64,000 nucleotides of DNA from Candidatus Woesebacteria bacterium (GCA_016700095.1 CP065002.1:1124145-1188144); one strand, 5' to 3'; numbered from the stretch's first letter, positions 8,554-64,000 are shown. Made by a program: numbers and translations. The notes: a model not told the origin generated them from the letters alone.

Positions 8554-11211
8554 ATGATAAAATTTTTTATGGCATACCATGGACTTACCAATCAAGAAGC
8601 TTTACAAAAACAAAAAGATTACGGTTTTAATGAAATACAAGACTATTTAAAGATTACTCCTTTCCAAATACTTGTAAGACAAATTAAAAGTAATTACATT
8701 ATTTACCTCCTAACATGTGCTTCTATTGTTTCATTCATCGTCGGAAAAGATTTCACTGCATATACGATCCTTGCAGTTGTTGCAACGGTAATATTTACAG
8801 GATTTATTCAAGAATTCAAAGCGGAAGGTTCGATCTCAGCATTAAAGAAAATGTTAATGCCCATTACCATTGTTATGCGAGATGGTAAAAAAACTGAACT
8901 ACCATCAAGAGAAATTGTACCCGATGACATCCTGCTTTTGGGAAATGGTGAGAAAATTCCCGCCGATTGCATACTAGTTGATTCGTATGAATTAAAGATT
9001 AATGAAGCAGCATTAACCGGCGAGTCGACTGAAGTCACAAAAAGTACACTTAAATCAGATGCATCATCACCTACCGATGAAAATAAGATTTTTATGGGTA
9101 CGTATATTGTGAATGGAAGATGTGTGGCAAAAGTCCAACACACGGGTATGAATACTAAATTTGGCAGGATTGCACATCTGATTTCTTCAGCAGAGAAATC
9201 GTTCCCACTGCAAGAAAAAATAAACTATATCACAAAGTATATGGTGATAATCGCTATCACCATGGCTGGTGCCACAAGTACACTAATGATACTAAGGGCA
9301 GATACTCTGGATACGGCAACAATATTGGAAATTCTGGTTCTTGCAATCGCGATTGCCGTATCGGCTTTTCCGGAAGGATTACCTGTCGTACTGATATCAA
9401 CTCTTGCGGTGGGAGCCAAAAGGATGTCGGAAAAAGATGCAATTGTAAACAGAATGTCAATAATAGAAGCATTGGGCGAAACAACTGTTGTATGCTCGGA
9501 TAAAACCGGAACTATAACCAGAGGCGAAATGACAGTCAAAAAAATATTTACCGGAGACAATATATATGAAGTTGAAGGAAGTGGATTTGTCGCACACGGA
9601 AGAATTTTGAAAGATTCGGTTTCTGTTGATTTGAAAGATTCTCCCGAACTTAGACAATTAATAAAAGCAGGCGTGTTATGTACCGATGCAGAGATTGAAC
9701 GATCTGGAACCGATAATGAGTATACAACCATTGGTTCCCCAACCGAGGCGGCTTTGTTAGTACTGGGAGCCAAAACTAATATTTTCAAGGAATCATTTAA
9801 ATCACAAAGGACAAACGAAACACCATTTAGCTCGGAAAGGAAAATGATGTCGGTTCTCCACAAGGAAAACGGTACGTATACAGTATATGTTAAGGGAGCT
9901 CCCGAAATTGTATTGGAAAAATGTGAATACTATTTGGCTAATGGTAAAAAGACCAAACTAAAGAAAGACAAGTTAACTGAAATACTCCAAATACAAAAAG
10001 GCTTGTCGGGAAACGCTTATCGAACATTAGTCGTAGCATATAAAGATATTTCAAACGCCAATAGTTACAATGAAGATAATTTAATATTTTTGGGATTAGT
10101 TGCCATGGAGGATCCTCCACGGGAAAATGTCAAGGAGTCGATAGACATCGCGAAAAGAGCAGGAATTAGAGTTATCATGATAACAGGTGATAACAAAGAT
10201 ACTGCAGTATCAATTGCCCATCAAATCGGTTTAGTCGGAAATGTCATAACAGGAATAGAACTTGACGAAATGTCAGAACGTGAAGTGTCTCTTTCGGTAA
10301 AACACACCAGTATATTTGCCCGAGTACGACCTGATCATAAAATAAAAATAATATCCGCTCTCAAATCAAATGGAGAAATTGTCACAATGACAGGTGACGG
10401 AGTTAATGATGCACCGGCACTAAAAGCAGCACATGTTGGAGTAGCAATGGGTATTAACGGCACCGATGTTTCAAGGTCCGCGTCCGATTTAATACTTAGA
10501 AATGATAGTTTTTCTACAATAATCGATGCTATCGCAGAGGGTAGAAATATATTCAATAACTTACGTAAATTTGTTACATATCAGTTAAGTTGTAACTTTG
10601 CTGAACTCATTACAATTTTTGTAGGTGTACTCTTTGCCCCATTTTTCGGCTGGGAAATACCGGTACTTGTTTCGATACAGATTCTTTTTATGAATCTTGT
10701 TACCGACAATCTTCCTGCAATTACCCTTGGTCTTAATCCCACCTCGAAAGACATTATGTTGACTCCTCCTAGAAAAGGTTCGAAAATTCTAAACGGGATT
10801 CTAATAAAGTTATTAATCGTTACCGGAAGTACAATGGCAGCCTTAACACTTATTGCCTTCTATGTTTCATATAATTTGATTGATTACACAACTCAGACAA
10901 GTCGAACTATCGCATTGGTTACATTGATATTACTTGAAATAGTATTTGCTTTTGGTTTTAGATCATTTAGAAAAGCGACATTGACTAGATCACCATTTGT
11001 AAACAAATATTTAGTATACGCATCCGCAGTTTCACTAATTCTAACTTTTGCAATTATCTACACACCGTTAAATAAGTATTTTGAAACCGTCCCCGTCACT
11101 TTTGCCGGTTGGGCAATTGCAATATCTTTGATGTTACTTGGACTTGTAATCCACGATCTACTCAAGAAATTTAATTTAAGAAACTCAAGATATTTAGAAA
11201 GTATAAATTAA
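8554..11211 (+). CDS. P-type cation-transporting ATPase (type II, Ca2+/Mg2+-like).
   Basis: DKTGTIT phosphorylation motif, TGDN, GDGVNDAPAL hinge, 10 predicted TM helices, 885 aa. The true start is possibly the ATG at 8569 (MAYHGLT). Confidence 0.9.
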   Translation: MIKFFMAYHGLTNQEALQKQKDYGFNEIQDYLKITPFQILVRQIKSNYIIYLLTCASIVSFIVGKDFTAYTILAVVATVIFTGFIQEFKAEGSISALKKMLMPITIVMRDGKKTELPSREIVPDDILLLGNGEKIPADCILVDSYELKINEAALTGESTEVTKSTLKSDASSPTDENKIFMGTYIVNGRCVAKVQHTGMNTKFGRIAHLISSAEKSFPLQEKINYITKYMVIIAITMAGATSTLMILRADTLDTATILEILVLAIAIAVSAFPEGLPVVLISTLAVGAKRMSEKDAIVNRMSIIEALGETTVVCSDKTGTITRGEMTVKKIFTGDNIYEVEGSGFVAHGRILKDSVSVDLKDSPELRQLIKAGVLCTDAEIERSGTDNEYTTIGSPTEAALLVLGAKTNIFKESFKSQRTNETPFSSERKMMSVLHKENGTYTVYVKGAPEIVLEKCEYYLANGKKTKLKKDKLTEILQIQKGLSGNAYRTLVVAYKDISNANSYNEDNLIFLGLVAMEDPPRENVKESIDIAKRAGIRVIMITGDNKDTAVSIAHQIGLVGNVITGIELDEMSEREVSLSVKHTSIFARVRPDHKIKIISALKSNGEIVTMTGDGVNDAPALKAAHVGVAMGINGTDVSRSASDLILRNDSFSTIIDAIAEGRNIFNNLRKFVTYQLSCNFAELITIFVGVLFAPFFGWEIPVLVSIQILFMNLVTDNLPAITLGLNPTSKDIMLTPPRKGSKILNGILIKLLIVTGSTMAALTLIAFYVSYNLIDYTTQTSRTIALVTLILLEIVFAFGFRSFRKATLTRSPFVNKYLVYASAVSLILTFAIIYTPLNKYFETVPVTFAGWAIAISLMLLGLVIHDLLKKFNLRNSRYLESIN

Positions 11212-11455
11212 GGTAGATTTATTAAGGATGTATCGCTTGATCAGATATTTCAATTTATACTTCGCGAAAAGTACGAGCTGAAAGCGCGGCCAAAGAAAAT
11301 CGGAGATCATACTTTTCCCTAGAATAGAATACTATGGACTTCCGGGCTGTGGTTCTTTTTTTATTAACCAAAGGGAATGGTTTAATCGTGACAACGCATC
11401 ATGATTTGTAAATTATATACTTAACTAACTGATATAGAGAGGAAATCGCCGATAT

Positions 11456-11746
11456 ATGACTTATTTCGTATACATTCTCAGAACTTCATCTAATACTTTA
11501 TATATTGGTCAAACAAATGATGTAAGAAGAAGAATTTCAGAACACAAAAAGAAAGGCAAAAAGTCTGCTAAGTACTTGCGATACTTTAAGTCAGTGGAAC
11601 TTATTCATCAAGAAAAATACAATACTAAAAGTCAGGCTTTAAAACGCGAGGCTGAACTGAAAAAATGGCCAAAAGCAAAAAAAGAGGAACTGTGTAAAAA
11701 CCGCATCCATGAAGTATTGTCAAATAATGAAAAAGACTTATCCTGA
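11456..11746 (+). CDS. GIY-YIG nuclease superfamily protein (YhbQ/UPF0213-like).
   Basis: YFVYILRTSSNTLYIGQTNDVRRRISEH matches the GIY-YIG core. Confidence 0.8.
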   Translation: MTYFVYILRTSSNTLYIGQTNDVRRRISEHKKKGKKSAKYLRYFKSVELIHQEKYNTKSQALKREAELKKWPKAKKEELCKNRIHEVLSNNEKDLS

Positions 11747-11797
11747 TAATGTTGATGGTGTATTATTTAAGTATTAGGTTAGGAGGTGACAATTACG

Positions 11798-11998
11798 ATG
11801 AAAATACTTCAAAATGAAAGTAAAGTAGATAGGGGTATACGCATGGTTCTCGGTATGGCTATAGCTTTAGTTAGCTTTACCTATCTGGAGGGAACATTAC
11901 AACTTATTGCTCTGATAATTTCTTTGGTACTATTAGTAACCGGCTTTACGGGTTTTTGTCTTTTGTACAAATTACTAGGCATTAATACCAAGAAATAA
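11798..11998 (+). CDS. DUF2892 (YgaP-like) small inner-membrane protein.
   Basis: RGIRMVLGMAIALVSF...LVTGFTGFCLLYKLLGINT matches the DUF2892 signature. The ATG at 11798 lies 8 nt after AGGAGGTGA. The track start at 11786 is a GTG inside the SD. Confidence 0.7.
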   Translation: MKILQNESKVDRGIRMVLGMAIALVSFTYLEGTLQLIALIISLVLLVTGFTGFCLLYKLLGINTKK

Positions 11999-12116
11999 TC
12001 TAGATAGTATAATTTACTTCGACTTAAGATCTTTTTGGCAGTGGTATGTTTACAAAATACTCAACCCTGTTGAGACACTTACCCGGAAGCGGATTTTTAG
12101 TGAGACTTCACGAACT

Positions 12117-12137
12117 AAAGTCCGTGGTGACTTTTTT
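12117..12137 (+). terminator. Intrinsic terminator after the DUF2892 gene (AAAGTC-cgtggt-GACTTT followed by TTT).
   Basis: 6-bp stem, 6-nt loop and a T-run read directly from the sequence. Confidence 0.4.
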
Positions 12138-12306
12138 CGTCTTCAGCGGTAAGGCAAATCTCTATCGACGCGATAGAACGCGTGGTATTACCGAAAAAAG
12201 AAAATAAAAAGAAGCTTTAAAAAGTAAAAATACACAACACCCTTGGATGTAGGAAGAAAAGAATTGATGCGATTGCGTATTTGTATTGGTATTTTTATAA
12301 ACAGTC

Positions 12307-16415: not shown

Positions 16416-17546
16416 TTATCCAATTACTTTCTCCCAAGGAAATATATTTCTACCAAAATGCCCATATGAAGCCGTTTTTAGATAGATCGGATTTCTTAAG
16501 TTAAGACCACTTATGATTCCCTCAACTGATGTGTCTAATAACTTATGCATATACATTTTAATTTCTTTTTGTGAAGCTTTTTCTGTTCCGAAAGTTTCCA
16601 CGTCCTGCATGACAGGTTTTCTCGCACCGATGAAATACGCCAGTCTAACTTCTGCCCTTTGAGCAAGACCTTTAGCCACAATATTTTTAGCAAGAAATCT
16701 GGCTGCATATGCTCCGGATCGATCAACTTTTGTTGGGTCTTTACCGCTAAAAGCGCCACCCCCAAGACGGGCATAACTTCCATAACTATCCACTGCGATT
16801 TTTCGACCCGTAACCCCCGTGTCCGATGCCGGTCCTCCGATATGCCACACACCTGTTCCGTTAACAATCAAATCTTTTGGAGATATTTCAAATCCATATT
16901 TCAATAACACAGGGGAAACGACTTTTTTGTAAATGTCATCTTTTACTTTATTAAGTGCAACTTTAGGAGAATGTGGTACAGCAACCACGACATTTGTTAT
17001 TCGATATGGTTTACCATTTTTATATTCAACAGTCACTTGGCTTTTTCCGTCAGGACGAAGATACTTCAGTATATTTTTCTCTCTTACTTTATCTAATAAT
17101 TCACAAAGATTGTGTGCAATCATAATTGGAAGCGGCATAAATACTTTTGTTTCATTACATGCATATCCAAACATCATCCCCTGATCCCCGGCACCTTTTT
17201 TATTTACGCCCTGGGCAATTTCGCTTGATTGTTCATGAATATTTATAGAAATATCACTAGCAGGCGAAAAGCCCAATTCCGGCTCAATATAACCTAATCT
17301 TTTAATTTGTTTTTTAATTATTTTTTCGTAGTCAACCTTATAGTCGGAGGTAATTTCACCCGCAACAAACACTTTATTAGTCGTCACCATTGTTTCAACT
17401 GCTACTCTTCCAAACTCATCTTTTTTGTATACCTCATCAAGAATAGCGTCACTTATCTGATCGCATATTTTATCGGGGTGACCAGCACAAACAGACTCGG
17501 AGGTAAATAAATTTTTGGAGATGATTGTTTTTTGTCGACTGACCAT
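16416..17546 (-). CDS. metK: S-adenosylmethionine synthetase.
   Basis: FTSESVCAGHPDKICDQISD N-terminal signature. The start was reset to the ATG at 17544..17546 (RBS AAGGAAAG), because the upstream track extension overlaps the riboswitch. Confidence 0.95.
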   Translation of the reverse strand: MVSRQKTIISKNLFTSESVCAGHPDKICDQISDAILDEVYKKDEFGRVAVETMVTTNKVFVAGEITSDYKVDYEKIIKKQIKRLGYIEPELGFSPASDISINIHEQSSEIAQGVNKKGAGDQGMMFGYACNETKVFMPLPIMIAHNLCELLDKVREKNILKYLRPDGKSQVTVEYKNGKPYRITNVVVAVPHSPKVALNKVKDDIYKKVVSPVLLKYGFEISPKDLIVNGTGVWHIGGPASDTGVTGRKIAVDSYGSYARLGGGAFSGKDPTKVDRSGAYAARFLAKNIVAKGLAQRAEVRLAYFIGARKPVMQDVETFGTEKASQKEIKMYMHKLLDTSVEGIISGLNLRNPIYLKTASYGHFGRNIFPWEKVIG

Positions 17547-17554
17547 ATCTTTCC

Positions 17555-17645
17555 TTTTGGCCGGAATTAGCACCGTGTTTTAAATCGGTTGCTGGGTAGC
17601 TTAACAAGCCGGATCTTTAGCTACCTCTCTTGATACCTAAATAAA
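17555..17645 (-). ncRNA. SAM-I (S-box) riboswitch in the metK 5' leader.
   Basis: Reverse-strand sequence TATCAAGAGAGGTAGC...GCTACCCAGCAACC...ACGGTGCTAATTCCGG contains the S-box hallmarks (AUCAAGAGnGG, GCAACC, GGUGCUAAUUCC) directly upstream of metK. Confidence 0.8.
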
Positions 17646-57828: not shown

Positions 57829-58590
57829 TCAAAATACGCAATCTCGTGCATACTTTTGATCGAAGATATCTATTAATTCCGATTCTTTGCCGATTATATT
57901 AATACCAATATTTTTTACTTCATCTTTATTACCAAAAAATAAATTTTTCAACTCTGAATCATTTCTCTTTTTAAATCGGGAAACAACTTCATCTTTTGTC
58001 AACTTCAATTTGCAGTAAAAAATGAATGCGACGTTATACGATTTTGTTCTAAACGCTCCGATTAATTCTATCTTCTCAATATCGCTTTCCACCACACCCG
58101 TTTCTTCGAGCACTTCATTTTGAGCTGATTTGAACAAATCAACATCTTTTCTATGTTGCGGTTTGTTAAATACTCCACCGATATAACTATACTTTCTACT
58201 TGCTGCAAAAAAATCTGATTTTTCACCAAATACAAACATGGCATTACTTGTCTCGATAAAAATTGAAGAATAAGTCGCCATGGGCAAGTATTCATCTCCC
58301 TTTCTTATTAATTCATCGGTAAAATCTCCAATCGAAGATCTGATACTAAACGGAACTGTCGAAAATTCTAGTTTACATTTATTGTCGTGAATGACATACC
58401 CATCCAATCTACAAACTGGCTGATCCCACATTTTTTTACCGTTTTTCAGCGCCTCTTCAAGTTTCAATTGCCAGATCTGCTGTGCTTTATTTTCAATATT
58501 TTTATCTATCTTTCGCGACGATACACTGCTATACGTACAAGAAACACTGTCTTTTGGAAACACTCCTTGAAATAAAATCTTACCGTCCAT
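57829..58590 (-). CDS. Nudix-domain protein with an N-terminal extension. The C-terminus is probably truncated by a frameshift (see findings).
   Basis: AQNEVLEETGV Nudix-box core. The ORF ends in TGATGATGA, and the +1 frame continues with a HAD-motif-like peptide. Confidence 0.6.
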   Translation of the reverse strand: MDGKILFQGVFPKDSVSCTYSSVSSRKIDKNIENKAQQIWQLKLEEALKNGKKMWDQPVCRLDGYVIHDNKCKLEFSTVPFSIRSSIGDFTDELIRKGDEYLPMATYSSIFIETSNAMFVFGEKSDFFAASRKYSYIGGVFNKPQHRKDVDLFKSAQNEVLEETGVVESDIEKIELIGAFRTKSYNVAFIFYCKLKLTKDEVVSRFKKRNDSELKNLFFGNKDEVKNIGINIIGKESELIDIFDQKYARDCVF

Positions 58591-58770
58591 AGCTTTTATG
58601 GAATTTTACCATCTAATTATTATTATCAAACGTGCTAAGTATTTGACCAACGTACATCATTAGAAATGTACAATTATGGTTTTATGAAATTATTATTTCC
58701 TGTTTCAATACCGTTTTGACATTACCGCAAATTCCAACCAATTATTTATTTATAATCAATTGACTTTTGT

Positions 58771-59290
58771 CTACACATCCTCCTTTGGTCTATACTGCAG
58801 CGCCTCTGCTATATGATTGGTAGATACTTCCTTTGTTTCTTCTAAATCCGCTATTGTTCGGGAAATTTTTATTACCTTAAAATAACTTCGAGCTGACAAA
58901 TTCATGGAAGATATTGCACTTCTTAGTATTGTTCGACAGTCAGCATTTAGCAGACAAAATTCTTTCACGGTATTGGAACTCATTTCGCCATTTGATACAA
59001 TTTTTAATCCCTTAAACCTCTTTAGTTGAGCATCCCGTGCTTTTTGTATTCGCCGTTGTATAGATTTCGAGTTTTCGTTTTCATTGGTTTGTTTTCCAAT
59101 TAGTTTGTATGTGTCAACCGATGGAACCCACACATGAATATCGATTCTGTCAAGAAGAGGTCCGGAAATTCGTTTAGCATAGCGTGAGATCTGTCCCGGT
59201 AAACACTTACATGGCCGTTTGGGGTCTTTGTAATATCCACACGGGTGGGGGTGTACATTGTTTTCAACAAGGACACCATCTAATACATCA
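58771..59290 (-). pseudogene. comM: 3' fragment of comM/yifB (Mg-chelatase-like AAA+ ATPase C-terminal domain), separated from its 5' part by the inserted element.
   Basis: HPCGYYKDPKRPCKCLPGQISRYAKRISGPLLDRIDIHVWVP...LSARSYFKVIKISRTIADLEETKEVSTNHIAEALQYR is collinear with the ComM C-terminus (NPCPCGYY...QRYxxRISGPLLDRIDL...LSARAYxRILKVARTIADL...HLAEALQYR). Confidence 0.75.
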
Positions 59291-60921
59291 TCAACAATAA
59301 ACTCTATATGAACCTCACCCTTGTCTCCTACAACAACCCTCTTTATGAATTGCTGCAAAACCTTCTTTTTCTTAGCCAAATCCCCATTATTGAAGTGTTC
59401 GTCAAACTTCATAAGGAACTTCCTCTTTTTATCAAGTAAAGCATTGTTTTCCTCTATAGAGGCAAGGCTACGCTCTAATTTTGTCAGTTCTTCTTTGGCT
59501 GTCTTTAGTGCCATCTCAACTTCTTTTGAGCGTTCATAGTAAGTTTGAGGAGTAACAAAGCCCTCCTGAAATGCACTGTCCCACCTATCTTTTGCAAAAT
59601 TGAGCTTAAAGATTTCCTTTTTCTTGGCTGCAACCTGATGCTTCAGGCTCTCAATAAACTTATCAATCGATAACCTCTCAAATGCTTCTTTAACTTCAGC
59701 ATTTTGTGCCAATTCATGAATCCTCTGTATTATCACTCCTTCCAGTTTAGCAGCTGACATTTTGTAAGTGTTGCATGGACAGACTTTGACACCGCTAATA
59801 TGATTGCATGGACAACCATAGTGTATTCGTGGTTTGGCATTAGGTGACCTCTTGAGAGTTGAGGGAGTAGGGTTTTGTCGCTTGTAGTGTAGTCTGTGCC
59901 CACAGTGGCAATATGCCAGAGGTATTAATAATCCCTCACTCGCAATAGCCCTGCCTCTGAAAATATACCGCTGTCTCATCCGTTCCTGGGCTACCTTGAA
60001 TGTATCTTCATCAATCAGTTTTGGGATTTTCTCGTTAGGCACTAATATCCATTCTTCTGGTGAGGTTTGCTTTCGCTTACCTCTGAAAACAGGTCTATGG
60101 TTATGCCTTACTATGCCTATATAAAAAGGGTTTGCCAAGATTTTCCTAACGCTGGGAGGTCTCCACAACCCTCCCATAGGAGCTGGAATTTTTTCCTTGT
60201 TCAAGACAGTGCAAATTTTGCGGTAAGAATAATCCTCCCTGACAAAGTGTTTGAATATTCTCTTTACCACCTCAGACTGCGCCTCATTCACCAAGATGTC
60301 AAATTCTACTGTTGGATGTATCCGCTTATAATCTTTGTTTAAACCATAAGGAACATTGTGAGGGTCACCCCTTAAAGCTCTCTTCCTCGCACCTTGCCTT
60401 ACTTTTCTCCTTATACCTTTAACATCTATGTCAGCTTTTATATCGACTATCGCCTCATGGATAACCTCTGAATCATCCTGCTGGGGGTCATAGAGTCTTG
60501 GGTCAACAATTTCCCTGGGTTGGTTATAGGAATAAAATTGGATAAAGTTCTTTTTTAATGTTTGCCTAACAAGTAAAGCTGTATCCCTATCCCTGCTAAA
60601 CCTATCTGCGTCATACACAACTAAAACATCAAATTCCCCTTTGTTGGCAGCGTCCATCATTGCCATCAACCCCTCTCGGCTTTCGATGCGGTGACCTTTC
60701 TGTACATCCTTAAAAACCAAATCAACAAACTTCCAGTGGTGGTTGTCTATCGCTTGCAAACACCTTTTTTTCTGTTCATCGAGGCTTCCCTTTGTAGGGT
60801 CTGCCTGGTCATCTGTTGATACTCGGATATAGTAGGCTGCCCTTACTTCTACTTCCTCAATTTCAACCTTCGGTGTAACTGAATTTAGACCTAATTTGTT
60901 AAGCAGTTTTGTGTTTTCCAT
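58771..60921 (-). CDS. Large serine recombinase (about 555 aa of recombinase proper) whose ORF reads through the attachment junction into the comM 3' fragment.
   Basis: Resolvase catalytic domain YYIRVSTDDQ...RFSRD, recombinase domain, zinc-ribbon cysteines (CHCGH...CPCNHISGVKVCPC), coiled coil. There is no stop codon before the comM-derived 160 aa. Confidence 0.9.
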   Translation of the reverse strand: MENTKLLNKLGLNSVTPKVEIEEVEVRAAYYIRVSTDDQADPTKGSLDEQKKRCLQAIDNHHWKFVDLVFKDVQKGHRIESREGLMAMMDAANKGEFDVLVVYDADRFSRDRDTALLVRQTLKKNFIQFYSYNQPREIVDPRLYDPQQDDSEVIHEAIVDIKADIDVKGIRRKVRQGARKRALRGDPHNVPYGLNKDYKRIHPTVEFDILVNEAQSEVVKRIFKHFVREDYSYRKICTVLNKEKIPAPMGGLWRPPSVRKILANPFYIGIVRHNHRPVFRGKRKQTSPEEWILVPNEKIPKLIDEDTFKVAQERMRQRYIFRGRAIASEGLLIPLAYCHCGHRLHYKRQNPTPSTLKRSPNAKPRIHYGCPCNHISGVKVCPCNTYKMSAAKLEGVIIQRIHELAQNAEVKEAFERLSIDKFIESLKHQVAAKKKEIFKLNFAKDRWDSAFQEGFVTPQTYYERSKEVEMALKTAKEELTKLERSLASIEENNALLDKKRKFLMKFDEHFNNGDLAKKKKVLQQFIKRVVVGDKGEVHIEFIVDDVLDGVLVENNVHPHPCGYYKDPKRPCKCLPGQISRYAKRISGPLLDRIDIHVWVPSVDTYKLIGKQTNENENSKSIQRRIQKARDAQLKRFKGLKIVSNGEMSSNTVKEFCLLNADCRTILRSAISSMNLSARSYFKVIKISRTIADLEETKEVSTNHIAEALQYRPKEDV

Positions 60922-60924
60922 AAG

Positions 60925-61806
60925 TTACCAAGTTATTACTGTCCTTTGACCTGTAATCTCATCATGGGCAATAGTGCCAATCATCGAACCAACTGATGTT
61001 AGGTCAATTTTCTGCAAAGAGTTTTCCCATATCTCTTTTAACTTTTTCCCTTCTTGGGTCTCATTAATGAATTTCTGGGCTTCCCATTCGCCAAAGGGTT
61101 CTTTCAAAACCCCATCCAAACCCCTTCCTATAAAAGATTCAAAGCTAAGGCATGACAGGCCAACTAAGTGCATTATGTCAACCTGTGTTAGTGGAGATGC
61201 CTTCGATATTATTGGTGACAGGTGTCTAAGCCACCAGTCCCTTGACACAGTGTTTATTTGCTCTGGGGTTAATAGTTCTTTCTTTACATTCAGTGGTCTG
61301 ATTGAGAAGATTGTGACAGCCAACGCCAAGTACCTTATGTGCTTTGGACTCAAGTTAGAAATTGAGTCTATTGCTTGAGGTGACACAAGAGATATTAGAC
61401 TATCCTCATTCGCAATTAGCCTCTCAGATATAACCCTCGCTAATAATTTATGCCTTTCTTCATTCGATGTCTTTGATGCTGCATATAATGCATCCTGGAA
61501 GGTTGCAGAAAAAGCTGGGTCTCTAAACGCTGACTTAACTAATGCGGCAGTAACTGGGTTGTCTTTGCTTGATTCCTCAATTTTCTTAATTTTCTCTGCA
61601 ATATCTTCCAGATAATGTAGTGTGTTTTCCTCAGCTTTCTTTTGGACTTCCTTTTGGTGAGGTCTCCATTTATCCTTTAACCACTTAATCGCTGGACTTA
61701 GTGCAGCCTTGACCACCATTGAACCTGCCTCAGAAGCCCCACTTTTAGCGATTTCCTCTACACCTTTTGTCAATACATCTGTTACTGGTTTTGGGTCTAT
61801 TGCCAT
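60925..61806 (-). CDS. Hypothetical 293-aa cargo protein of the element (no family recognised).
   Basis: Clean ORF between the HTH gene (shared ATGA overlap) and the recombinase (3-nt gap). Predominantly helical composition. Confidence 0.7.
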   Translation of the reverse strand: MAIDPKPVTDVLTKGVEEIAKSGASEAGSMVVKAALSPAIKWLKDKWRPHQKEVQKKAEENTLHYLEDIAEKIKKIEESSKDNPVTAALVKSAFRDPAFSATFQDALYAASKTSNEERHKLLARVISERLIANEDSLISLVSPQAIDSISNLSPKHIRYLALAVTIFSIRPLNVKKELLTPEQINTVSRDWWLRHLSPIISKASPLTQVDIMHLVGLSCLSFESFIGRGLDGVLKEPFGEWEAQKFINETQEGKKLKEIWENSLQKIDLTSVGSMIGTIAHDEITGQRTVITW

Positions 61807-62075
61807 TACTTACCACCTATCCTTTCCTTAATTTCAGTGATACTAAGCCTTTTAGACTGATACCTTTTAACTTCAGATATTATCTTTAGGCTCTTGTCCT
61901 CATCAAATAACTGGTAACCTCCAGGAGTTTTTTCCACCACCTCAAGCAAGCCTTCTTTTGCGTAGTAACGGATAGTAGAAGGGAGCACCCCTGCCTTTAA
62001 TGCTAATTGTCCAACTTTAACCTTTTTCATAATTTTTTTCCGCAAAATTTTTTCCTTACCAGTCCCAAATGTCAT
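61806..62075 (-). CDS. MerR-family HTH DNA-binding protein (excisionase/regulator-like).
   Basis: VKVGQLALKAGVLPSTIRYYAKEGLL is a MerR-type HTH. Confidence 0.75.
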   Translation of the reverse strand: MTFGTGKEKILRKKIMKKVKVGQLALKAGVLPSTIRYYAKEGLLEVVEKTPGGYQLFDEDKSLKIISEVKRYQSKRLSITEIKERIGGK

Positions 62076-62152
62076 TTTGGTTCTGGACTACCACCCATAA
62101 AAGAGTCTCATAAATTTAATGGTTGGTTGGAAACCCATACCCCCCTTGGCTA

Positions 62153-62350
62153 TTATGGATTTGTCCTACCCCCATCTTTGTTCTCAACTGCTAAATCTTT
62201 ATCCAGGCGTTCCTTTTCTCGCATAGCCCTAATGTTCTGAGCTGCTATCGTAAAGATGCGGTTATAGGCAGTCGTCAAAGCCCTATCAATCTCCTCTGGA
62301 GTGCCTACTTGCTTAAATACTATGTTAGGTGGAACTACTTTTCTTCCCAT
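62153..62350 (-). CDS. Hypothetical 65-aa protein.
   Basis: Lies 4 nt downstream of the integrase gene. No family recognised. Confidence 0.4.
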   Translation of the reverse strand: MGRKVVPPNIVFKQVGTPEEIDRALTTAYNRIFTIAAQNIRAMREKERLDKDLAVENKDGGRTNP

Positions 62351-62354
62351 AATT

Positions 62355-63311
62355 TCAACTTCCTGTATTTATGATTATCGGAACTTCAGGTGGGCTTTCG
62401 CTAAAAGCAACCCCATCAAAAGCGTTGTAATACCTTGGCAAATCCGCTTGCTTCTTGATGCTATCGTTGTACACTTGCAACATTTCTAAGCTGCGGTGTC
62501 TGGTATATTGTGCAACCTCAAGCAAGTCTCCTTTATATGTCTTAATGAGCTTGGTGGTGAAGTAGTGCCTAAACCCATGTGTGGACTTCTCGATATCTAA
62601 ACCCTTGAGAACAGTAGTCACAATTTCCCTGATTGCTCTTGTGGTAAGTCTCTGGTTATTGCGGTTGTTGCTTATAGAAGTAAACAATGCACCAGAGGCT
62701 TTTCTGTTTGATTTTATGTAATCCAAAAGCACTCTTACTGATTCAGGGTGTAGGTCAATCGGTTCTTTGTCATCCCTGCCTTTTCCCTGGATTAGTGCTG
62801 TCATATTTGATAAATCCAAGTCCTCTACATCAAGCCTCACAATTTCAACTTGCCTCAAGCCCTGCAATGCCAGTAGGCTCATTATCGCTTTGACTCGTGT
62901 GTTCTGTGGAGTAGGGTCAAGAGACCTGAGGTAACTTACAAGCCTTGCCATTTCAATCTCGCTAACCCCTGTCCTTTTATGCTTTTTCTCTTGGGTGAAT
63001 GTCTTTATGTTTTGGGTTATATCAACTGGTAATACTCCTTGTCGATTCAACTCCTTGAGGAATATCCTGGCAGCAGCAAGATATTTATTCTTTGTTGAGG
63101 TGCTTAAATCAGTCCTTCCTATCAAATATCTCTTAAATTCTAAGAATGTGTTATGAGTAAATCCATTACCCTGGAGAAAATCTAAAAATAGTCCAATGCG
63201 ATACTTGTAGTCTATGCGTGTACTTTCGGCTACATCAAGAAGGTCAAATATCTTCTGTGCGCTCAAATGTGGGTTATTTATCGTCAAATCTAAATCGTTG
63301 TTCATGGTCAT
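62355..63311 (-). CDS. Tyrosine recombinase/phage-type integrase.
   Basis: N-terminal SAM-like domain. Catalytic R...HGFRHYF...RHRSLEMLQVY (R-H-R-Y) signature. Confidence 0.88.
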   Translation of the reverse strand: MTMNNDLDLTINNPHLSAQKIFDLLDVAESTRIDYKYRIGLFLDFLQGNGFTHNTFLEFKRYLIGRTDLSTSTKNKYLAAARIFLKELNRQGVLPVDITQNIKTFTQEKKHKRTGVSEIEMARLVSYLRSLDPTPQNTRVKAIMSLLALQGLRQVEIVRLDVEDLDLSNMTALIQGKGRDDKEPIDLHPESVRVLLDYIKSNRKASGALFTSISNNRNNQRLTTRAIREIVTTVLKGLDIEKSTHGFRHYFTTKLIKTYKGDLLEVAQYTRHRSLEMLQVYNDSIKKQADLPRYYNAFDGVAFSESPPEVPIIINTGS

Positions 63312-63358
63312 TAAAGTTCGTGACTCACAGTCTCATCCTTAAAGTATCACTTTAAGGT

Positions 63359-63943
63359 TTAAGAGTCAAGTGTTTTGTTTTTTCTCACATAAAAAACCAT
63401 TCCAGGTAAGGCATCTATGAAACTGGCAAACCGTTTGCCACCCTGTTTCTTGATATGAGGCAGTTCGCTCCATATCCTGGCAGCCTCAATCACCTCATAC
63501 TCGGTATAATTATTTGCCAATAGTTCCTTGAATAACCTAACCTCCTTGATAAGGATTCCAATATCTTTGGGCTTTCTGCTTGGGAAAATCTCGTAGTATT
63601 GGTCAAGCAGCTTTGCCTCTTGGTGCATCCGATATCTTTCCTTTTGGGTTCTAAGCAATGCGGTTCTCCTACTTAGAAACTTCTCAAATACCCTTTTTCT
63701 ACTCAAAATGTTTGCTGCACCTTTTTCCTTAATCCATTTAGCTGCCCTGCGTGCCTCTTTGACAGTGTCTATCTCTGGATACTCATCAATCATCTCTTTT
63801 AAGAATTGCTTATCGTCTATGGAGAGTAGAGCCTTTAAGTAATTTATCTTTTCCTCCTTAGTAGAGAAGCCACCAAAAGGAACTTTTGGTACTCCTTTAG
63901 GAGTATCATCCTTTTTATAATCCTTTATATTAGTGTGTGCCAT
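63359..63943 (-). CDS. Hypothetical 194-aa protein in the element.
   Basis: Clean ORF. Basic N-terminus. No family recognised. Confidence 0.6.
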   Translation of the reverse strand: MAHTNIKDYKKDDTPKGVPKVPFGGFSTKEEKINYLKALLSIDDKQFLKEMIDEYPEIDTVKEARRAAKWIKEKGAANILSRKRVFEKFLSRRTALLRTQKERYRMHQEAKLLDQYYEIFPSRKPKDIGILIKEVRLFKELLANNYTEYEVIEAARIWSELPHIKKQGGKRFASFIDALPGMVFYVRKNKTLDS

Positions 63944-64000
63944 TTTGTCTCGACTGGTAGAGTCATTATGTCCTGACTCAGTGGTAGTTGAGCCAATTTG

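Follow-up and report, generated by a model that had tools for sequence, protein, structure and literature searches.

A large serine recombinase element probably resident in comM of a Candidatus Woesebacteria bacterium, with an integrase reading frame that continues into the host gene

In this study, we analysed a stretch of 64,000 nucleotides (nt) from a Candidatus Woesebacteria bacterium (GCA_016700095.1, CP065002.1:1124145-1188144; hereafter the window), in which an open reading frame (ORF) of 716 amino acids (aa) at 58771..60921 on the minus strand joins a large serine recombinase (LSR, aa 1-560) to the C-terminal 156 aa and the stop codon of the host ComM protein. It is very probable that window positions 59243-64000 are the right-hand part of an integrative element of ~9.6 kb, which this LSR put into comM, and that the 716-aa ORF is a by-product of the geometry of the attachment (att) sites. 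A preliminary description of the window had already proposed a mobile element in comM whose serine recombinase ORF is completed by the 3' end of the host gene. This proposal is now supported by both junctions in homologous loci, by an empty site with a 2-bp overlap, and by a rejoined comM that scores above the YifB cut-off.

The element-derived part of the ORF (59243..60921, minus strand) comprises the resolvase catalytic domain, the recombinase domain, a zinc-ribbon region of the Cys4 type, a coiled coil and, at its end, 17 residues whose codons run across the P arm of the att site. Pfam placed Resolvase (PF00239) at aa 28-186 of the 716-aa ORF (4e-22) and Recombinase (PF07508) at aa 214-318 (5e-24), and positions 4-464 of the 465 in the NCBIfam XisF large-serine-recombinase model corresponded to aa 31-533. 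A match to the integrase family phrog_95 was also obtained (1.4e-80). The catalytic motif YIRVS35T is present, residues R33, S35, D106, R107 and R110 are invariant in seven homologues, and there are four invariant Cys residues (C338, C340, C370 and C372); in the Pfam search, PF13408 was detected only in two relatives, P0006 and P0007, and not in the window LSR. The closest solved relatives are SPbeta SprA/YokA and the TP901-1 integrase.

The host part (58771..59242, minus strand) encodes the AAA+ lid, the Mg_chelatase_C domain and the stop codon of comM. The tail of Pfam Mg_chelatase was recognised at aa 556-604 (profile positions 156-204 of 207, 2e-13) and Mg_chelatase_C at aa 616-711 (2e-28), and positions 345-499 of the 499 in the NCBIfam YifB/ComM model TIGR00368 corresponded to aa 556-711, with 144 bits against a curated cut-off of 362, as the window holds only the 3' part of the gene. 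The preliminary description had divided the ORF into ~555 aa of serine recombinase and ~160 aa of ComM/YifB, and had pointed to a hidden Markov model search of the 3' end for ComM homology as the check; these Pfam and NCBIfam matches bear out the division, as 560 + 156 aa, and the homology. The product of the ORF is identical to NCBI protein QQS38888.1, annotated as a 'recombinase family protein' of Candidatus Woesebacteria bacterium on a contig of 1,274,238 bp. Users of this annotation should be aware that the deposited 716-aa protein is a chimeric read-through ORF and that comM should be marked as disrupted here.

Four further fusion proteins (P0002-P0005) of 722-725 aa were found, which are 54-64% identical and have the same Resolvase + Recombinase + Mg_chelatase_C architecture. 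The next relatives, P0006 and P0007 (43% identical), are plain LSRs of 510-512 aa without the fusion. In the alignment, the unfused LSRs stop at '...V.I.F(I/V)', at about residue 543 of P0001, and the fused ones run on via a conserved linker of 10-16 residues (e.g. DDVLDGVLVENNVH), after which ComM homology starts from PHPCGY. This junction recurs in at least five independent assemblies from four data sources. The gene order is conserved across the fused loci, and both ends of the element are visible in two of them, L001 and L002. In L001, a comM 5' ORF of 353 aa (ChlI + Mg_chelatase; 1041-2102) lies downstream of dprA and the fusion ORF is at 10001-12175; in L002, the equivalent comM 5' ORF of 355 aa is at 134-1201 and the fusion ORF at 9210-11378. 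The insertion measures 9,605 bp in L001 and 9,694 bp in L002, and is preceded by a comM 5' part of 352-355 aa.

When the two comM halves were joined in silico at a shared CC dinucleotide, uninterrupted ORFs of 509 aa (L001) and 516 aa (L002) were obtained. They scored 564 bits (positions 3-499 of 499) and 622 bits (positions 1-499 of 499), respectively, against TIGR00368, for which the cut-off is 362. The rejoined comM aligned end to end with the solved ComM 8rxd (394 bits), and its nearest database proteins are intact ComMs of 509 aa that are at most 87% identical. One empty-site locus, L031, encodes a ComM that is 87% identical, with the same neighbours as in L001: dprA upstream, and UPF0102, Fic and tRNA synthetase genes downstream. 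By BLASTN, L031 4948-7058 matched L001 2-2098 and L031 7057-7524 matched L001 11702-12169, so that the overlap is exactly the 2-nt CC. The identity between the two loci was 74-78% in the flanks and 76% in the comM 3' part. Since the comM 3' part has diverged as much as the flanks and homology resumes at the CC, the comM 3' part is host DNA. About 4 kb upstream of dprA-comM, the contig with the empty site carries a further LSR gene (L031 1-1714) of 575 aa, which is truncated at the edge of the locus.

The sources name Woesebacteria (the window) and Levybacteria (L006, MFOV01000013.1) as hosts, and a metagenome scan gave only more copies of known members (L008 and L009). The element, which had been considered unfamiliar, belongs to a family of ~9.6-kb elements in genomes of the Woesebacteria/Levybacteria type.

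The window itself holds attR only, and the att sites were tested on the related loci. Their comparison placed the crossover at the dinucleotide CC (window 59243..59244, minus strand), which forms the first two bases of the Pro codon in ComM N-P-C-P|C-G and also of the last Pro codon of the LSR gene (int). The same CC is the crossover in all five of the five fused loci and in the unfused locus L029. On one side lies the P arm of attR, AAAACAATGTACACCCCCAC (59245..59264, minus strand), which is element-derived by locus comparison and codes for the ...NNVHPH tail of int; over its last 18 nt, AACAATGTACACCCCCAC, it does not differ from the P arm of L001. On the other side lies the B' arm, GTGTGGATATTACAAAGACCCC (59221..59242, minus strand), which locus comparison and the empty site identify as host comM sequence encoding CGYYKDP. 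In L001, the comM side reads ...ATC AAT CCC TGT CC|T TAG GGGTGTACATAG... and the int side ...AACAATGTACACCCC CAC CC|C TGC GGG TAT..., and in L001 and L002 the breakpoint bases common to both sides are CC alone.

The attP site was rebuilt from the int-side left half and the comM-side right half, which gave AACAATGTACACCCCCAC-CC-TTAGGGGTGTACATAGTT for L001. The rebuilt arms are symmetric about the CC, being complementary at 16 of the 22 positions in L001 and at 15 of 22 in L002. A 2-bp core between dyad-symmetric arms of ~20 bp is the anatomy of serine integrase sites. In the rebuilt attP, int ends as ...N-N-V-H-P-H-P-TAG in L001 and as ...N-P-H-P-Q-G-L-S-TAG in L002, and the TAG that closes int there is the same TAG that closes the comM 5' ORF (...N-P-C-P-stop) in the integrated state. 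Because the last 18 nt of the window's P arm are those of L001, the int gene of the window's element would end in the same way in the excised form, and the P' arm at its far end may be expected to resemble TTAGGGGTGTACATAG.

The junction had been placed earlier at about 59280..59310, together with a sharp rise in GC content from about 59290, and these two points needed correction. The actual CC at 59244/59243 is about 40-60 nt further left. The element part (59244-64000) has a GC content of 40.6%, compared with 36.1% for the rest of the window and 38.8% for the highest host window of equal size, so the higher GC of the element was real; the 100-bp windows near the junction were noisy and had no sharp step at 59290, and the junction cannot be placed by GC. 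Therefore, GC content was rejected as a junction marker. Repeat and promoter/terminator scans of 58400-64000 gave nothing above chance.

The first Cys of the Cys-rich motif of ComM (NPCPCG...CxC) is replaced by His in the fused proteins (HPHPCG/NPHPCG; window 59245-59250 and equivalents). A preserved metal site was considered for this His-for-Cys change and rejected, as P0219, a more distant fusion protein, has Gln at this position and the non-coding arm of L029 reads Tyr. The His probably reflects the P-arm sequence.

From these features, the following course of events is very probable. The recombinase would recognise attB over the codons ...A-x-N-P-C-P-C-G-Y... and exchange strands at the central CC. 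In this element family, int is located at the very edge of the element and reads outwards, with its last 6-7 codons forming the P arm of attP and its stop codon lying in the P' arm. Integration would split comM between the AAA+ core and the lid/C-terminal domain, and the comM 5' fragment would then be closed by the P'-arm stop codon. At the same time, integration would take away the stop codon of int, whose Pro codon would be completed by a comM base, and reading would continue in frame into the 156 comM 3' codons. The fusion would thus be a geometric by-product, because the 3' end of int overlaps attP and the stop codon is in the P' arm. As long as the element stays in place, comM is inactive; it would be restored by precise excision through the LSR. 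The loss of ComM may help the element by lowering transformation-mediated curing.

The unfused relatives P0006 and P0007 also sit in elements that split comM. In the unfused locus L029, the junctions are ...AAT CCT TGT CC|A TAG GGATAGACATTGTT and AAACAATGCTTACCCATAC CC|A TGC GGT, so that the site and the CC are unchanged and the P arm is similar. This P arm does not encode protein (stop codons occur 12 codons upstream), and the LSR gene is found at another place in the element, in reverse orientation. Because unfused L029 uses the same site with a similar non-coding P arm, targeting of this comM site appears to be a property of the wider LSR clade and the fusion to be lineage-specific. The conservation of the P arm would then reflect recognition by the recombinase, and the fusion would be limited to lineages in which the int 3' end overlaps attP. 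In the place of the integrase, a PIF1-type helicase gene (L029 3296-5304) adjoins the comM 3' junction in the unfused sister elements. The comM 3' part of L029 was called as a separate ORF of 140 aa from an internal Met.

An exhaustive search of 1.84 billion representatives for proteins with LSR and ComM C-terminal (ComM-C) parts, in which each architecture was confirmed by Pfam, revealed more distant fusions. P0197 (623 aa, 34% identity to the query) joins ComM at the same site (...NPHP|CGYFG), and so does the 320-aa fragment P0219 (32% identity; ...KPQP|CG). The junction reads ...PHG|CPCG in P0308 (669 aa, 27% identity) and ...QGCNCG in P0271 (726 aa, 31% identity); in P0259 (832 aa, 31% identity) it lies in the Walker A region, a different comM site. 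LSR read-through into comM is thus recurrent across distant LSR lineages. Unfused junctions at the same site were observed in P0347/P0348 (MNNNVYSYP|CGYY) and P0376 (...NNVNPLP|CGYY). The comM gene appears to be split elsewhere as well: the ComM 3' ORFs P0372 and P0400 have foreign N-termini, joined at FLDEFPEF and at QP(I/M)EDG. Together with P0259, this points to several distinct insertion hot-spots within comM.

With a ComM C-terminal query of 157 aa, the best 120 matches were all short (129-272 aa) and contained no full-length ComM. Many of these short matches keep an intact NPCPCG and start at an internal Met, so that this result is not usable as a count of occupied sites. Full-length ComMs of similar identity exist, and the ranking of this query may favour short targets.

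Some observations weigh against the interpretation of window positions 59243-64000 as part of a mobile element. The far end of the element of this genome, and hence its comM 5' fragment, lies past base 64000, outside the window, which contains the right-hand 4.76 kb (59243-64000; 4,757 bp). The other end is not in the window because both searches of the window for it were empty: tblastn with three comM 5' fragments gave noise only, and a P'-arm motif search matched the P arm itself only. An exact 50-mer scan of the genome collection for the window sequence gave no match. The window's element would have the same far end as its relatives, and with a conserved element size this end is expected at ~4.8-5 kb beyond base 64000. 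Neither an excised nor a circular form with an intact attP was detected, the LSR profile and a degenerate 38-nt attP pattern both being without a match in the viral contig collection, and all known copies of the fused clade are integrated. These integrated copies, which for the P0005 element come from several samples, agree with the idea of an immobile remnant that is fixed in the lineage with comM permanently lost. We consider this idea rather unlikely, since the LSRs have intact ORFs whose catalytic residues do not vary, the two att arms have been preserved with their symmetry, and the comM halves are uninterrupted and rejoin perfectly, with empty sites in close relatives. The element may still be active. 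The view that the 716-aa protein represents a domesticated, stable fusion gene, or a misassembly, instead of an insertion junction is the least probable. Its annotation by NCBI as a single 'recombinase family protein' and the failure to find an excised form would fit such a reading, but the same junction in the independent assemblies mentioned above, the presence of the matching comM 5' fragment at 9.6-9.7 kb upstream in the two loci long enough to show it, and the empty site, at whose CC host homology resumes with flank-like divergence, all speak against it. Likewise, it is very improbable that the tyrosine recombinase encoded at 62355-63311 is the integrase and that the serine recombinase performs inversion or resolution. 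The tyrosine recombinase is a full-length XerC/D-like enzyme that is 83% conserved in L001 and L004, but the junction is of the serine type (2-bp core, symmetric arms of ~20 bp, no longer direct repeat), L002 and L005 have a small serine recombinase instead at the same att sites, and the unfused relatives keep the LSR and the site and not the tyrosine recombinase.

A different question is whether the read-through is a selected, state-dependent device, in which the 716-aa resident Int differs from the 560-aa excised Int in activity, stability or directionality and so locks or times excision. The fusion geometry is kept across elements that are only 54% identical, it is found at the same site in the distant P0197 and at other comM positions in P0259, P0271 and P0308, and all copies have kept the comM 3' part as an intact ORF; in addition, phage Mx8 provides a precedent for an int ORF that crosses attP (PMC6070905). 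However, one ancestral arrangement, with a chance of one in three of being in frame, accounts for the whole fused clade, the frame then being fixed by the Pro codon at the CC in both partners. The closest unfused relatives use the same site, and the fusion is thus not needed for function. The recurrence may not exceed the one in three in-frame cases expected by chance, and a recent insertion, or selection for a restorable comM, would equally leave the comM 3' part intact. We therefore regard such a device as unlikely. If it were real, the 716-aa Int-ComM-C protein would be an integration-state sensor, a serine counterpart of Mx8 IntP/IntX that evolved more than once, at several positions in comM.

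Apart from the junction, the gene content of the integrative element was compared among the related loci. In the window, the slot just upstream of int is occupied by a cargo gene (60925..61806, minus strand) encoding a 293-aa protein of unknown function of the LPO_1073/Vpar_1526 family (NCBIfam 2e-46; also phrog_19542). It is followed by a MerR-type helix-turn-helix (HTH) protein (61806..62075, minus strand), which is present in all related elements at 67-76% identity, by a conserved 65-aa ORF of unknown function (62153..62350, minus strand; 68-71% identical in L001 and L004), by the second recombinase of the tyrosine type (62355..63311, minus strand) and by a 194-aa ORF without detectable relatives (63359..63943, minus strand), which is inside the element, as the element runs past the right edge of the window. 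The MerR HTH protein, the 293-aa protein and the tyrosine integrase named in the preliminary description were recognised by Pfam and NCBIfam, and the last of them is probably not the integrase. The small MerR-like (MerR/HTH_17-type) protein is a candidate excision/directionality factor or regulator.

The conserved backbone of these elements begins with a divergently transcribed HTH_3 repressor and a protein of 131-135 aa that resembles the N-terminal DNA-binding part of small terminases (PF03592 6e-10; phrog_51 2e-14). An 82-aa ORF, a SpoVG-like protein and a Rep-like protein of 308-343 aa with weak N-terminal matches to RepO/HTH_36 come next, and then the second recombinase, the 65-aa ORF, the MerR-like protein, the variable cargo slot and the LSR. 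The cargo slot contains LPO_1073 in the window and an SNase-type nuclease in L002 and L005, and it is empty in L001 and L004; L001 has a DUF5655 ORF further upstream, after the tyrosine recombinase. The coordinates of the variable cargo are 60925-61806 in the window, 2911-3861 in L001, 8161-9174 in L002 and 3801-4808 in L005. The SNase-type nucleases of the other elements matched the PADLOC candidate defence model C3a212 'SNc+LTD' (up to 6e-48), and PADLOC gave no match for the window cargo gene. Genes for a capsid, a portal or a large terminase are absent from the elements, and the fused clade yielded no primase or helicase.

The slot between the Rep-like and MerR-like genes is filled by the tyrosine recombinase in three elements, and the same slot holds an unrelated serine recombinase of 267-282 aa in L002 (6769-7572) and L005 (2367-3215). 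This non-orthologous swap of the second recombinase suggests a common accessory role, e.g. multimer resolution of the circular form. The tyrosine recombinase of the window would then probably be the resolvase of the circular form and not the integrase. In the remainder of the 64-kb window, a SAM-I/IV riboswitch aptamer at 17518-17641 (minus strand; RF01725, 49.5 bits against a gathering score of 41.1) was the sole Rfam match, and no tRNA genes were found in the whole window.

In size and gene content, the element is similar to satellites of the phage-inducible chromosomal island (PICI) type: it has ~10 kb, an integrase at one end, a divergent HTH repressor, small-terminase-like and Rep-like proteins, and no structural genes. 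It differs in that the small-terminase match covers the N-terminal DNA-binding part only, the Rep assignment comes from weak RepO/HTH_36 matches, no helper phage is known and no viral contig matched. The element may therefore only weakly be said to resemble a PICI-like satellite or a small integrative replicon; if this resemblance were true, the 9.6-kb elements would be the first phage-satellite-like elements described in bacteria of the Candidate Phyla Radiation (CPR).

The comM gene was described earlier as a known integration hot-spot in other bacteria, and the literature agrees with this (PMC10083194, PMC4774983, PMC12378983). Durrant et al. (2022) reported that ComM-type (Mg-chelatase-like) genes are the target of 12.4% of the predicted site-specific LSRs, and that LSR targets are enriched in DNA competence genes (PMC10083194). 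The LSR elements of that study share with ours an LSR with resolvase, recombinase, zinc-ribbon and coiled-coil parts, site-specific insertion in the comM/YifB coding sequence and a dinucleotide core, whereas the present elements have CPR/Patescibacteria hosts (Woesebacteria and Levybacteria), a compact unit of 9.6 kb and an int ORF that crosses attP.

An overlap of int with attP has been documented in the Myxococcus phage Mx8, in which the attP core is inside the int ORF and integration produces a recombinant int with a new 3' end (PMC6070905). In both systems, integration changes the C-terminus of Int; here, the P arm encodes the int tail and 156 residues are added. However, Mx8 uses a tyrosine recombinase, which gains a C-terminus that does not correspond to any folded domain of the target protein, whereas a serine recombinase acquires the ComM lid/C-terminal domain here; furthermore, an altered activity of Int is documented for Mx8. 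The window system is best regarded as an analogue of Mx8 and not as a member of that family. Interruption of a host gene by an LSR element, with restoration on precise excision, is also a feature of SPbeta/SprA in spsM, skin/SpoIVCA in sigK, the fdxN element with XisF and the Listeria A118-type prophages in comK. Compared with these systems, the identity is low here (scores far below the curated cut-offs) and restoration was obtained in silico only.

It is well documented that mobile elements disrupt comM in Proteobacteria (AbaR and islands of Aggregatibacter, Mannheimia, Francisella and Pseudomonas), and this has been read as protection from transformation-mediated curing (PMC4774983, PMC12378983). 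The proteobacterial islands have the same target gene and the same proposed benefit as the present element, but they differ in recombination machinery (the non-AbaR islands share an unrelated CF65_00446-like integrase), in insertion positions and in host phyla. The AbaR islands are Tn7-like transposons.

In our literature search, which was incomplete in coverage, neither this element family nor LSR read-through into comM was found to be described. A serine-integrase element in comM is known as such; what is new is the element family in the CPR group Microgenomates and its att sites at nucleotide resolution. The element is a clean new example of a well-known pattern and represents no new mechanism. 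The recurrent in-frame LSR-ComM fusions pose a small testable question, namely whether they are more than chance, and the set of attP, attB and integrase from Microgenomates could be tried as a genetic tool in a group with very few tools. In CPR/Patescibacteria, which have tiny genomes, DNA uptake is thought to be important, and their mobile elements are poorly catalogued. The finding extends the conflict between serine-integrase elements and competence genes to these bacteria.

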